Shown here one piece after another: positions 41,664 to 48,651 of a stretch of 64,000 nucleotides of DNA. Source of the DNA: Octopus vulgaris (taxonomy: Eukaryota); contig OX597837.1 in assembly GCA_951406725.2 (NCBI GenBank), forward strand, positions 7,998,001-8,062,000, read 5' to 3'. The position numbers and the translations under genes were made by a program. Under the pieces are notes generated by a model that was not told the DNA's origin, did not search any database, and was given only the letters and a program-made list of their open reading frames with translations. Each line of letters starts with the position of its first letter. Position 1 is the first letter of the stretch.

Positions 41664-41959
41664 TATACATATTTGTCGACCGGTTTCGCTTTCGCTAATC
41701 ATGACATTAAAATTTATTTAAATACGTATTTTCTTATGAAAAAAAATTTGCTCATTTTGGATGTGGAGTTTATGAATGAATGATTCAAGAAGTAGAAAAA
41801 TTTAAAGAGAGGTAATTGATTATCGTTAATTGTTCATCTTCCGGTGGTGGAAGGAATATATATATATATATATTCACAAAAATTCAAAAACTATAGTGGG
41901 GAGAAATATGTACACTGATGGGTATGTAATCTTGAATTATATATATATATATATATATA

Positions 41960-42092
41960 AATTGTTATCGCCATATTAATATGGCATTCTTATAGATATA
42001 AGAATGCCATATTAATATGGCGATAAGAATTAATTTCCAGTAAACGCTGCCGTAATCTATTTTATAGAGACTTAGTAATTTTAATATTTCTA
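41960..42092. mobile_element. (TA)n-flanked hairpin plus tail insert
   Basis: 35-bp arms 41960-41994 and 41997-42031, then a tail to 42092. Confidence 0.65.
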
Positions 42093-42107: not shown

Positions 42108-42245
42108 CTTTATTTAAAGCAGCAGAAAATTCAACAAAACATGTTTTGTTGAATTTTCTGCTGCTTTAAATAAAGCATATTACACTACCACTGGTATTTG
42201 AGTACTCTTTTTTTCCACCTTGTTTCACATTTATGTGTTTACTCC

Positions 42246-42247
<2 letters not shown>
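42108..42247 (+). mobile_element. Family P4 short fold-back
   Basis: Perfect 68-bp palindrome 42108-42175 plus tail to 42247; homologous to 48378-48651. Confidence 0.85.
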
Positions 42248-42324
<77 letters not shown>

Positions 42325-42791
42325 ATATATATATACATATATATACCTATATATATAAATTAATACATATGTACAGACATCAAGCAGGCGCTCACACTTC
42401 AATCTCACTCTCTTTCTCTCTCTCTCAAACACACACGCGCGCAAGTATACACACGTGCCTCATTATTAAGACTCGTTGAACAAAACCTATTGAGGTGAAA
42501 ATCGAGTAATTAGGGGAAAAAAAGCCGAAAAAAAAATCAGAATTTCAAATTTGGCTTGACCTAAGATTTGAAACTGTGATCGTCGGTTTCAAATTCAGCT
42601 ACCTGAATGCTACATATTAATAAAGTAGAATATTAGATAGTATATTAGAATGGATTAGGAGACATTTAATGGCTGTTGTATATGAATTATTACTGTACTG
42701 TGTCATGTCTGACCTTGTGTGACACACATAAAAAACTCATTAGATCACAGATAGATTATAAAGCGCTGTCTACTCATGTGTATGAGTGTTT

Positions 42792-42864
<73 letters not shown>

Positions 42865-42968
42865 CAATATTCATATGCATAGATACATATATACATCTAT
42901 GTATATACTGTATATATATGTAAATATACATATTAATATATATATACAGAGAGAGAGATATACATGCA

Positions 42969-43018
<50 letters not shown>

Positions 43019-43438
43019 TATATATTGTGTACATGTGTGTGTCCATATGTCCATGTATATTATACATGTAACATGTATATAAATGTTGTGTATATGAGCT
43101 CACATGCATATGTATGTACGTATGTATGTATGTATATATGTATGTATAAATGTATGTATGTATGTATGTATGTGTGTGTGTGGGTATTTCTTCGCACCGC
43201 TATCTATCTTTGTCGGTCTCTCATCTGTGTATGTATGTATATATATATATCTGTGCGCATGTGCGCATATGATTATATGCGTGGTGTTTGGTGTGTGGTG
43301 ATGTGGTGGTGCTGCGTGTGTGTGAGTGTAATATTTTGGTTATCCAGCCGTAAAATACACGAACCTCCACCCGTCAGAACAGCGCACTGGGGTCGATGTT
43401 ATCGACTTAATCCTTTTGTCTGTCCTTGTTTGTCCCTT

Positions 43439-43552
43439 CTCGAAACGTGAAATCCTCTTTCTTTCCTTTCCTTTCCTGAGCGTCCAATAACACACTACTT
43501 ATTCCATGTCCTCGCGTTGTTGTTTTTTTTACTTGCTTGTTCATGTCTGGAT

Positions 43553-43556
<4 letters not shown>
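43439..43556 (+). mobile_element. Family P3 truncated copy
   Basis: ctcgaaacgtgaaatcctc...cctcgcgttg...ggattaac followed by (TA)n; reverse complement of 17084-17195. Confidence 0.7.
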
Positions 43557-43595
<39 letters not shown>

Positions 43596-43597
<2 letters not shown>

Positions 43598-43771
43598 AGA
43601 AGTTGCAAAAAAAAACAAAACAAAAGACGACGACATGTGGTGTAGAAAATAAACAGGTGTATTAGTATAACGCTTGGGAATTGAAAAAGTCTTAAACGTT
43701 TCGAGTTTACGCTCTTCTGCAGAAAGGAACACAGAAAGAAACAAGGAGAGAAAAACAGGAGAGAAAAAAGG
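43596..43771 (-). mobile_element. Family P1 hammerhead-bearing insert in (TA)n
   Basis: 43691-43726 minus strand CUGCAGA-A-GAG(CGUAAA)CUC-GAAA-CGUU. Confidence 0.75.
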
Positions 43772-43783
43772 ATATATATATAT

Positions 43784-44076
43784 ATCACGTGATCACGTGA
43801 CCGACCAGACCATCAGATGTTGTTACACATCGCTGGTCACAATGCGTTCGCATTGTTTTAGCCTTCGAATGACGCCACCCCGCCCCCGCTGGCTAACCGA
43901 GCAGGCCAACAGAAGAAAGAGTGGTGAAGAAGTACAGCAGGGATCACAACCCCCCTGCCGGAGCCTCGTGGAGCTTTTAGGTGTTTTCGCCCAATAAACA
44001 CTCACAACGCCCGGTCTGGGAATCGAAACCGCGATCCTATGACCGCGAGTCCGCTGCCCTAACCACTAGGCCATTG

Positions 44077-44081
<5 letters not shown>
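43784..44081 (-). mobile_element. tRNA-derived SINE family D
   Basis: Minus-strand head aggcgcaatggcctagtggttagggcagcggactcgcgg...ggtttcgattccc; second copy at 51180-51449. Confidence 0.85.
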
Positions 44082-44163
<82 letters not shown>

Positions 44164-44172
44164 ATGTGTGTG

Positions 44173-44214
<42 letters not shown>

Positions 44215-44392
44215 ATATATATATATAAAGAGAGATATATTAAGCTAAATTGCTAATCGCTATATGAAGGATAATTTTGGAAGTCTACTTTTGCCAGCAT
44301 GTGTAAATATCAGAAAATATGTCTCGTATAATATTTATTATTTTACTTTTATTAAATTTCTCGTGGAACATACAAAATAATGATATAAATCT

Positions 44393-44958
44393 TGTTAACG
44401 CGGCGAAGAGAAAAATCAATAAACACAGAAGCCTGGTCGGCTGCTTTCAGCTTGTGCCGGTCGTGGTCGAGACGTCAGGTATTCTGGAACCTCGTATTAC
44501 CGATTTCCTCCGCAAAATTGTGCTAACAGCGGCCCGTCGAAGAAAATGAGCCTCGCGTGGTGGAGTGAGTACTGCAGCGACGCGACACTGGCCCTCGTCT
44601 GTGGCAACGCTATCGCGATGTGGAGGCACATGGCCTAGTGGTTAGAGCAGCGGACACGCGGTCGAGGGATCGCGGGTTCGAATCTCAGACCGGATGATGT
44701 GTGTGTTTTTGAGTGAAAACATCTAAGCTCCATGCGTCTCCAGTAGAAGGTAATGGCGAACTTCTGCTGACTCTTTCGCCACAACTTTCTCTCATTCTTT
44801 CCTCCTGCATCTTGCAGCTCACCTGCGACGGACCGGCGTCCCGTCCAGGTGGGGAACCTATACGCCAAGGAAACCAGGAAACCGGCACTTATGAGCCAGG
44901 CATGGCTCGAGAAGGAACAAACAATGCTATCGCGATCGTTACAACGGGGTACGACTGA
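44393..44958 (+). mobile_element. C-terminal RLE fragment of a CRE-like non-LTR retrotransposon, split by a SINE
   Basis: AAKRKINKHRSLVGCFQLVPVVVETSGILEP...LALVCGNAIAIV resembles the K..KY...F.P...ET.G and QRGNA motifs. Confidence 0.65.
44620..44921 (+). mobile_element. tRNA-derived SINE family E, full length, with 15-bp TSD
   Basis: A box tggcctagtgg, B box ggttcgaatct; TSD caacgctatcgcgat (44605-44619) and caatgctatcgcgat (44922-44936). Confidence 0.9.
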
Positions 44959-45282
44959 ACACCCAACTTATGCTGGGATATGTGACCCATCACCCCTTCT
45001 CCACCTCCATCTTCCGCTGCTTTAACCCCCACCCCTTAACTTGTTCTTTTTTATCTTTTTTATTTTTCTCATTTTCTCAACTCTCTTCTTTTGTCTTTCT
45101 TTGTGTCCATCTTAATCTTTCAAATTCAACTCAGCGAACAAACTAATTTATCACTTTCAAAAGTTTATTACCTTCAAATAAAAATAAAGAACGTTCTCAT
45201 TTGTATAATCCCCCGACTCTGTCATTTACTACCTCTCCCTCTCCTCCGCCTCCTCCTTTGTCTCTGTGAGTCTTTCAGTTTC

Positions 45283-45322
<40 letters not shown>

Positions 45323-45574
45323 TCCATTACTCACTGCTTACTAACACGCTTAGTAGATGCACTCATACACACCTCTCATGTGATCACGGGCTGTTTATCT
45401 CTCTTTTAGTATCTCTCACTCTCTCTCTACTTTCTCTTTATTCATTGTATAAATCGTGATTACACAAAGCAAGTAAGCAAGCGAGCGAGCAAGCAACCAA
45501 TCAACTTACCAACCAACATTTATTTATATCGGCCATCATTTTAATGAGATATTTACAAAACAAATAATCCAAAC

Positions 45575-45845
45575 GACGCCATTTTGTTTTCAAACGGGAA
45601 GTTATACGCTATTTTCTTTTCGATGCGGAAGTTTTAGCCCATTTTTTTTCTTTTAAAACGGAAGTAATGCTCCATTTTCTTTTTTCAACCGGAAGTTGCC
45701 CACCATTTTCTTTTCCAACGGAAGCTGCGTGCTGTTATCTTCACAAACGAATGCCGTATGTCATATTCTTTCTGGAAACGAAGTTCTACAAGCATTTTCT
45801 TTTCAAAAGGATCTTTTATACCATTTTCTTTTCAAGATATTTCCA
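45575..45845. repeat. Degenerate ~30-bp tandem array carrying CCATTTT and CGGAAGT motifs
   Basis: About eight units of ccattttcttttc-nnn-cggaagt, decaying to the right. Confidence 0.7.
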
Positions 45846-46289
45846 AATTATTTTTACATTTAAAAATTATCTTTTTCTCACCTCAATTCTATTTTATTAA
45901 TTTCGCAGTTTGTTTGTTTTATCCTCATTTAAATTCTTTCAATTTTTTAATAATTTTCTTATTTTATTTTCCAGTTGTTCGTGTTACTCTTGGTATTTTC
46001 CGCATTTTATTTTCTTTAAATATATCTTTTTTTCTTCGTCAAATTAATTTCATTTTCTGTGAATTACAGCAGTGAAATTTCTATTGAATCCATAGAAAAT
46101 TTTACGAAAGCACAAAAAAACCAAAAAAAAAAAACCACACAAAATCCTCCCGTCCTCGCCCCCCCCGTAACACCTCTCAATATCTTTGCATTTTCATTCA
46201 TTACTAATCATTCATTTATTTATTCATTCAAATAATCATCCACTCATTCATTTGGGTATTCAATCAACCTTTGCATTTATCATTACCGC

Positions 46290-46347
<58 letters not shown>

Positions 46348-46357
46348 GTTATTATTG

Positions 46358-46392
<35 letters not shown>

Positions 46393-46585
46393 GTTGTTAT
46401 TATTGTTATTATTATTATTATTGTTATTGTCATTATTATTGTTGTTATTATTATTGTTGTTGTTGCTGCTGTTGTTATCATCATCATTATTATCAGTGTC
46501 ATCATCATCATCATCCTCATTATTATTTTTATTAATAGTCATCATCATAATTTTTATTATTTTTTATCACTATTATATTTTTGTC

Positions 46586-46654
<69 letters not shown>

Positions 46655-46793
46655 CAACATTACCATCATCATCATCATCATTATTATTACTATCATTATT
46701 GTTATTATTTTATTTTTTTATTATTATTATAAGGTTTTATTATCATCATCATCATCATTATCATCATCATCATTATTATTATCATCATCATCC

Positions 46794-46863
<70 letters not shown>

Positions 46864-46885
46864 CATTATTATTATTATTATTATC

Positions 46886-46944
<59 letters not shown>

Positions 46945-47293
46945 CATCATCACTTTATTTGCAGAAATTATTTTCCTTGTTGTTGTTGTTATTACTACTA
47001 TTATATAACCGTTGATTTGTTTTAGAGTTTTGCATTGGTTAATTAGAGGGCTACGTGTTGCTTAATTAAACCTGTTTCACTTATTTATCATACATGTGCT
47101 TTTTAATTAGAAAAGCGACAGAGAGAGGGAGAGAGAGAGAATGAGAGAGAGACAGACAGATAGACGGACTGAAAGACAAGAGATATAGAGAAAGAGAGGG
47201 GTGGCGGTGGGAGGAAGAATGGAGGAGGTTTGCGGTTAGAGATTACGCTTATGTGTTGACTTTAAATTAAATCTGTGTGTGTGTGTTTGTGTA

Positions 47294-47372
<79 letters not shown>

Positions 47373-47695
47373 CAAAGAAAGAGAGAGTATGTATTTATGA
47401 ATGGATAACTGACCGATTAATAAATACAGAGAACCTCATACGACCTGTTTGCAATTTAGACATCTATCAAAATCACCTTTCTCTCTCTCTCTCCCTCTCT
47501 CCCGGTTTTCGTTCTATAGCCCCCTGTGTCTTAGTATATATATATATATATATATATAAACACACACACACATTTATACACGTGCATGTACACATACATA
47601 TAAATATATATATATATATGTGCATTATATATATGTATATATATATGTGTGTGTATATATATATATATGCTTGTATGTTTATGTGTGTATATATA

Positions 47696-47745
<50 letters not shown>

Positions 47746-47825
47746 CATATATATATATTATATATATGTATATACATATATATATACATGTATATATATA
47801 TATATATGTATACACACACACACAT

Positions 47826-47877
<52 letters not shown>

Positions 47878-48318
47878 GTATGCAAATATATTATATACAA
47901 ATATTATGCGTGTTTGTGTTTGTGTGTGTATTTCGTTCACTGTTTCAATAGCCACCTCTGTCTTTCTCTCTCTCACTCTCTATCTATCGATCTCTTTCTC
48001 CCTCTCTCTATCAATCTATCTCTGTTTTAATCAGTCATACTGTCTAGCTATTTAATTAACTAATTTAAAGAAAGAGAAAGAGAGAGAGAGAGATAGAAAG
48101 GGAGAGAAGGAATACGAGAGAGAAAGTAAGAGTGAGAGAGAGTGAAAGAGTGAGAGAGAGAAAGAAGGAATGATTTGATTTGATAATTAACTATGTTTTT
48201 TTTTATTTGCCTGTATTACATTTATTTAATTATTTATTAGTGAGTTTATCTATTTTGTGTTTGAAAGGTGAAAGATAGAGGCAGACATACAGACATACAG
48301 ACTTACAGACAGACAAAC

Positions 48319-48377
<59 letters not shown>

Positions 48378-48379
<2 letters not shown>

Positions 48380-48650
48380 GGAGTAAACACATAAATGTGA
48401 AACAAGGTGGAAAAAAGAGTACTCAAATACCAGTGGTAGAGTAATATGCTTTATTTTAAGCAGCAGAAAATTCAACAAAATCTGTTACTCTGAGTTTCTC
48501 GTTGCCGTTCATCAGACAGTTTTTGCTAGAATGGAACTGATATATCAATTCAATCTATATCAGTTCCATTCTAGCAAAAACTGTCTGATGAACGGCAACG
48601 AGAAACTCAGAGTAACAGATTTTGTTGAATTTTCTGCTGCTTAAAATAAA

Positions 48651-48651
<1 letters not shown>
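48378..48651. mobile_element. Family P4 long fold-back with a hammerhead motif on each strand
   Basis: 96-bp arms 48449-48544 and 48556-48651, 11-nt loop, tail 48378-48448, (TA)n on both sides. Confidence 0.88.
48581..48618 (+). ncRNA. Minimal type I hammerhead motif (mirror copy at 48482-48519 on the minus strand)
   Basis: CUGU-CUGAUGA-A CG(GCAA)CG A-GAAA-CUCAGAGUA^ACAG; canonical core, very short stem II. Confidence 0.75.

Follow-up and report, generated by a model that had tools for sequence, protein, structure and literature searches.

Two hairpins in a 64,000-nt stretch of the Octopus vulgaris genome (GCA_951406725.2, contig OX597837.1, positions 7,998,001 to 8,062,000; the window) belong to a young, abundant Penelope-like element (PLE) that carries Hydra-clade motifs, and both are head-to-head insertions truncated at the 5' end. 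We have good confidence that such insertions arise from two complementary DNAs (cDNAs), started at two fixed internal sites of the element RNA and joined by microhomology. The two copies are ordinary members of their family and their layout is already known for PLEs. Inverted pseudo-long terminal repeats (pLTRs), the tail, two internal priming sites and the hammerhead have all been published; what is added here is a genome-wide test. Comparisons with published systems draw on parts of the sources cited.

The first-pass annotation of this DNA had described hairpins with 34- and 96-bp arms, tails of about 70 nt, (TA)n ends and, in the long copy, a hammerhead on each strand, and all of this was confirmed from the sequence. 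Both sets of arms are perfect; the short copy is loop-free and the long copy has an 11-nt loop. The copies lie in opposite orientations, are 95% identical across 110 nt, and are adjoined by (TA)n at all four outer ends. Positions with a sign are given relative to the predicted hammerhead cut and read along the ribozyme strand, +1 being the first base after the cut. On this scale the short copy turns between +3 and +4, and the arms of the long copy extend to -74 and -59. The two represent different sub-variants of the family, with letters differing at +4/+5 and +29.

A 32-nt piece of the tail has 5,137 exact matches in the 2.8-Gb genome and its reversed control has none, so the tail marks a family repeat and not a chance resemblance. 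Upstream, long copies have about 1.2 kb of untranslated sequence and then an open reading frame (ORF) with reverse transcriptase (RT) and GIY-YIG-type motifs. The autonomous parent that the annotation had called for was thereby found: a 711-amino-acid ORF in a 3.36-kb unit (3.35-3.39 kb in six measured full-length loci). The protein can be read from its first Met in all 20 fetched loci. In a protein search with the RT, all 150 scored matches (of 10,072 candidates) were 96-100% identical, many lying in open frames of 727 codons. The element is young and very abundant, and its parent is intact in many copies. The protein has a YRDD motif, and its fold, predicted at pLDDT 90, most resembles telomerase RT (TERT; best match E 1e-9). 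An endonuclease motif, GVVY...YTG, is found at residues 580-600, and PF01541 is borne by near clusters and one homologue. The motifs defining Hydra-clade PLEs (RWK, DKT, CxCx5C, CxxC, and CxH; PMC8557442, Craig et al. 2021) occur at residues 37, 113, 562, 667, and 695 and are conserved in 41-45 of 45 aligned homologues. The parent is an endonuclease-bearing (EN+) PLE with a single ORF for a telomerase-like RT plus a GIY-YIG-type endonuclease at the C-terminus, and with a partial-tandem pLTR. Its motifs, (TA)n preference and pLTR hammerhead suggest a place in the Hydra clade.

Full-length loci start between -60 and -2431 in 18 of 20 cases, with one at +32, and 11 of the 20 have an adjacent inverted truncated copy. 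Copy lengths grade continuously into that of the full ORF and the tail is one-sided, so we rejected a miniature inverted-repeat transposable element (MITE), as the annotation had done. A non-LTR retrozyme is made of head-to-tail tandem non-coding units with a hammerhead in each (bioRxiv 10.64898/2026.07.22.740005); it was rejected because the octopus copies are head-to-head fragments of an autonomous element. It is very unlikely that the hairpins are a non-autonomous unit able to propagate itself, whether a MITE or something retrozyme-like, whose short copies arose by palindrome-centre deletion. Such a unit would account for the few near-identical apex forms shared by hundreds of copies (915 loci). 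However, the two ends are unlike each other, lengths run on to the full ORF, shared apexes occur in different sub-variants and so arose repeatedly, the joints are asymmetric, and there are no tandem ribozyme units within the window. Palindrome-centre deletion, the fallback offered for the short copy, is also unneeded: the joints are for the most part asymmetric and show microhomology or a handful of extra letters, which is what joining at the time of insertion would produce.

The outer ends of the family are fixed, at +108 for the tail and +37 for the tail-less arm. The +37 end joined to TA has 4,228 exact genome matches, and a TA-type flank follows the tail in nearly all of 90 anchors. Our samples were the first places listed on contig C1 rather than random ones, with 90 of 100 listed used for the tail and 70 of 100 for the +37 end; arms exceeding the 700-nt references were binned as beyond -61. 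Row L099 was excluded for a wrong flank, and L067 and L076 (spurious TA matches), L014 (decayed) and L050a/b (a two-tail insertion) were excluded from the partner arms. An adjacent inverted arm is present at 61 of the 90 tail anchors, and 60 of these arms end at +33..+44, corresponding to +37 with chance extension into TA. When loci were chosen by the +37 end, 35 of 70 had an adjacent partner and 32 of the 35 partners ended at the tail end. Inverted full-length insertions have one end of each kind in 11 of 11 cases, nine in one orientation and two in the other. Solo arms are found with either type of end. In 19 of 20 full-length loci there is an upstream partial copy whose sequence continues past +108 into the ORF, with the ATG at +176, and both +108 and +37 therefore lie inside that pLTR. 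The annotation had proposed one internal and one terminal priming site; the two fixed ends do behave as priming sites, but +108 is not the RNA terminus. The stem-loop predicted within the tail (Table 1) may be where the element protein binds.

The proposal that arms are joined at variable 5' ends is supported by the 61 joints examined: 37 have microhomology, 8 are blunt and 16 have extra letters. Many joints are asymmetric: the two arm ends differ by tens to hundreds of bases, and either arm can be the longer. Some pairs lack any overlap, with the tail arm halting at +34..+66 and the other arm beginning at +37. Slightly more tail arms than expected stop close to the +37 site (10 at +27..+42 vs 11 elsewhere in +6..+80; p 0.007), a pattern that collision on a single RNA would produce. 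In L1 twin priming there is a comparable stop at the second primer. Sub-variant letters are identical in both arms of 23 out of 24 insertions, compared with about 35% expected from variant frequencies by our own arithmetic. Near-identical arms and the many perfect apexes at 4-6-nt palindromes could also come from a single priming event, after which the cDNA folds at a micro-palindrome and copies itself, the second fixed end being generated by cutting or processing at +37. Self-priming has been proposed for such palindromes (PMC3846280). We consider this improbable, as so many joints are asymmetric in either direction, solo arms exist with either end, and snap-back cannot make the non-overlapping pairs.

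The annotation had also attributed some apexes to RNA 5' ends made by hammerhead self-cleavage. To locate the hammerhead we used a pattern and folding; none of the best 150 of 545 Rfam matches in the window is a hammerhead family. The type I core (CUGANGA, GAAA, and UH within three helices) is present, and the motif was seen in 210 ribozyme-length readings of the family. Hairpin apexes were then counted genome-wide with four self-complementary patterns allowing an equal 0-16-nt gap, although their stringency was not identical: 87 around the cut, 71 just downstream, 105 in stem II and 915 at -40 to -55. The tail-selected sample agrees, with 3 of 151 arm ends at -3..+5 and 41 at -48..-42. Among 40 new loci selected by +37, the numbers are 0 and 8. 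Clean ends, those with no microhomology, number 43 at +1, 28 at +4 and 47 at -3, and mutants of unbroken copies (point or indel) make up 13 of the 30 inspected at +1 and 9 of the 28 at +4. Ends joined to TA scatter between -13 and +6, and by hand count of the first 100 rows 1 of 40 distinct loci lies at +1/+2. From the census, the clean ends and this spread, the predicted cut site is not favored as an apex or an end, and no genomic trace of self-cleavage is found in the clean-end counts or the TA-joined ends. A lack of apex preference for the cut was the outcome that the annotation had named as refuting its cleavage proposal.

A few copies look like cleavage products. The short window copy turns one letter from where a cDNA ending at +1 would snap back, some hairpins have an arm ending at +1/-1, and solo 37-nt inserts (+1/+2 to +37) occur within (TA)n in about 7 of 30 loci (such as L185, L188, L190, L194, and L198/L199). 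The +1/-1 joints, however, use a 4-nt microhomology and by eye are about as common as joints with 4-nt microhomology at -12. We rejected the solo inserts, which are rare, as cleavage products, since neighboring start positions are as frequent and TA-joined ends are evenly spread. A rare variant with an 8-nt palindrome on the cut, identical to the short-copy apex, was found in 2 of the 210 ribozyme-length readings, and two hairpins listed around the cut bear it in one arm. For the short copy this variant and cleavage are equally good explanations; a single copy does not discriminate between them, whereas the census does. Self-cleavage as the source of apexes is largely refuted for the bulk of copies and has little chance of being the general explanation. 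The template was probably uncleaved in most events because most arms read through the cut site.

In the predicted ribozyme stem I is about 15 bp, while stem II is a weak 2 bp without the usual G10.1-C11.1 pair, and about one third of readings have a U4C core, all of which differ from the minimal PLE hammerheads described earlier (PMC4209133). The hammerhead fold of the monomer is at -5.7 kcal/mol vs -13.0 kcal/mol for the best fold, and the helix III strand pairs with itself at -7.4 kcal/mol. Like the minimal hammerheads, the octopus sequence is a type I motif in the pLTR with an unpaired base before stem II and a dimer-suited palindromic helix III, and it forms opposite-strand pairs (100-700 bp apart). 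The minimal PLE hammerheads have low activity in vitro (PMC4209133).

The hotspot of arm ends, at -42 to -48, is the 5' base of stem I, -47 being the last stem I pair in the predicted fold. Of short arms reaching -42, 31 of 58 stop by -48; the corresponding counts are 13 of 71 over the preceding 10 nt and 1 of 27 over the following 12 nt. Few apexes fall at a 10-nt palindrome at -62..-53, and blunt joints whose partner arms begin at a distance also have stops at -45..-47. The hotspot likely marks the position, by the base of stem I, of a common template RNA's 5' end. As its cause, a transcription start site is our first choice, held with somewhat less than even confidence. A decay-trimmed, structure-protected RNA end is unlikely, as is an RT stop to the same degree, and microhomology by itself is somewhat less likely still. 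Candidate initiator-like motifs, by match to the consensus, lie near -47 and -53. Drosophila Penelope has a start site in its pLTR (PMC2377424) and an intron that ends at helix I (PMC4209133). A candidate 52-nt GT..AG intron ends at -41 in the octopus family (L125:4125-4176), and three variants preserve a branch-like word. Four contig sets presumed to be RNA gave no splice joint for it, several of their contigs crossing it unspliced, and stubs retain letters upstream of -41.

These observations are consistent with the following sequence of events. The element protein, probably dimeric, would cut both strands of a (TA)n target and prime at +108 on one strand and at +37 on the other, using the same RNA; the TA-like letters following +37 may aid annealing. 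Both cDNAs would cross the uncleaved ribozyme and halt at variable points, mostly near -45. Their 3' ends could then anneal through short microhomology, each serving as template for the second strand of the other. The tail arm would stop near +37 in cases where the first enzyme runs into the second primer. Priming in the upstream pLTR would give stubs and priming in the downstream pLTR long copies. We suggest more tentatively that an asymmetric RT dimer might assign one start site to each target strand on a single uncleaved RNA, that the major template might begin at the 5' base of stem I, and that the hammerhead could act as a 5' boundary structure, not a cutter.

Several points weigh against this account. 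A 4-nt palindrome (CTAG) at -44..-41 and an A-run overlap the hotspot, favor joining and account for part of the peak. None of the 20 full-length copies starts at -42..-48, so longer RNAs must also be templates. The extra C expected after -47 from a capped RNA is present at 8 of 10 ends, but 6 of the 8 could be read from the partner arm. Two insertions break the pairing rule, L050 with two tail ends and L286 with two tail-less ends. Identity of the arms may have arisen because one was copied from the other, or through subsequent conversion. The clade is suggested by motifs, and a Pfam scan and PDB sequence search of the parent protein gave no match.

In the green anole Poseidon element PAc, which belongs to another clade and was studied in vitro (PMC11167929, Frangieh et al. 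2024), two internal RT start sites bound the tail, as proposed for the octopus family. The target of PAc is likewise AT-rich, with both strands cut and extended, as would be the case in octopus. Ribozyme mutants of PAc were without effect in vitro, cleavage was dispensable and no RNA reads ended at the cut (PMC11167929). The PAc ORF starts within the hammerhead, compared to +176 for the octopus ORF. Inverted joints, the pairing of site to strand and cDNA stop points come from the octopus data and lie outside the PAc account in the parts of it consulted (PMC11167929). Arkhipova et al. (2013; PMC3846280) described insertions with head-to-head inverted pLTRs, a junction palindrome, a one-sided tail and microhomology at the 5' junction, as in octopus; they differ in being few copies, with no positional census in the parts consulted, and in the explanation given, which is self-priming with an antisense template. 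PLEs are already known to have truncated inverted copies, tails on one side and microsatellite targets (PMC8557442; PMC3846280).

The octopus element shares with Hydra-clade PLEs the C-terminal endonuclease, the five motifs, a pLTR hammerhead and (TA)n targets, and by eye its protein follows the Hydra alignment in the supplement (PMC8557442). Also by eye, the hammerhead stems of one coral Hydra record there match those of octopus, and its tail stem-loop is similar. The octopus unit, at 3.36 kb, is longer than Hydra-clade PLEs, generally under 3 kb, and its tail is 71 nt vs 30-40 bp for PLEs in general (PMC8557442). Four short motifs of the octopus family were not found in that supplement as consulted, and the sole cephalopod Hydra family listed in it has another hammerhead. 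In the parts consulted, a further study only counts Penelope families in a cephalopod genome (PMC13282606). Our literature search, with subscription articles mostly outside its reach, found no positional apex census or pairing rule for PLEs and no biochemical study of the Hydra clade. The origin of inverted ends with a one-sided tail and the role of the hammerhead in PLEs are described as open questions (PMC8557442; PMC11167929). To these the octopus family contributes precise figures: an inverted insertion pairs one end at +108 with one at +37, the cut gives no signal, and there is a tenfold peak at the ribozyme's 5' base. Its intact ORFs are available for in vitro study of the Hydra clade. 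If an asymmetric dimer does act on uncleaved RNA, the thousands of stubs would be a genomic record of the PLE mechanism.

Table 1. Features of the two PLE hairpins in the window.
Feature	Position	Strand	Basis
Short copy, tail-less arm (pLTR +37 back to ~+4); outer end at (TA)n	42108..42141	-	Sequence
Short copy, tail-bearing arm (pLTR ~+1/+4 to +108); perfect arm 42142-42175, tail 42176-42247; outer end at (TA)n	42139..42247	+	Sequence
Short-copy apex, 8-nt self-complementary stretch	42138..42145	.	Letters also seen in a rare natural variant where the ribozyme region is unbroken
Long copy, 71-nt tail (+38 to +108) between the two fixed ends; predicted stem-loop inside	48378..48448	-	Sequence and folding
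Long copy, tail-bearing arm, 5' end ~-74; perfect arm 48449-48544	48449..48559	-	Sequence
Long copy, tail-less arm, -59 to +37; outer end at (TA)n; joined to the other arm by short TA microhomology	48556..48651	+	Sequence
Type I hammerhead motif; CUGAUGA core 48585-48591, predicted cut before 48615; stem I long, stem II of 2 bp, helix III strand nearly palindromic	48568..48631	+	Pattern and folding
Mirror hammerhead motif; CUGAUGA core 48515-48509, predicted cut before 48485; family apex hotspot at ~48527-48533	48469..48532	-	Pattern and folding

Other repeats were noted along the way. Fragments of another RT-coding retroelement family, Penelope-like by eye, lie beside copies of the parent (L106:36-389 and 737-1100; L107:7191-8216). 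About 80 nt to the left of the short copy, the window has a second, unrelated palindrome of about 75 bp beside (TA)n (41958-42031), which may be a stub from a different family. At 795-994 the window also has a MITE-like, GC-rich inverted repeat, about 200 bp in length and long-armed.

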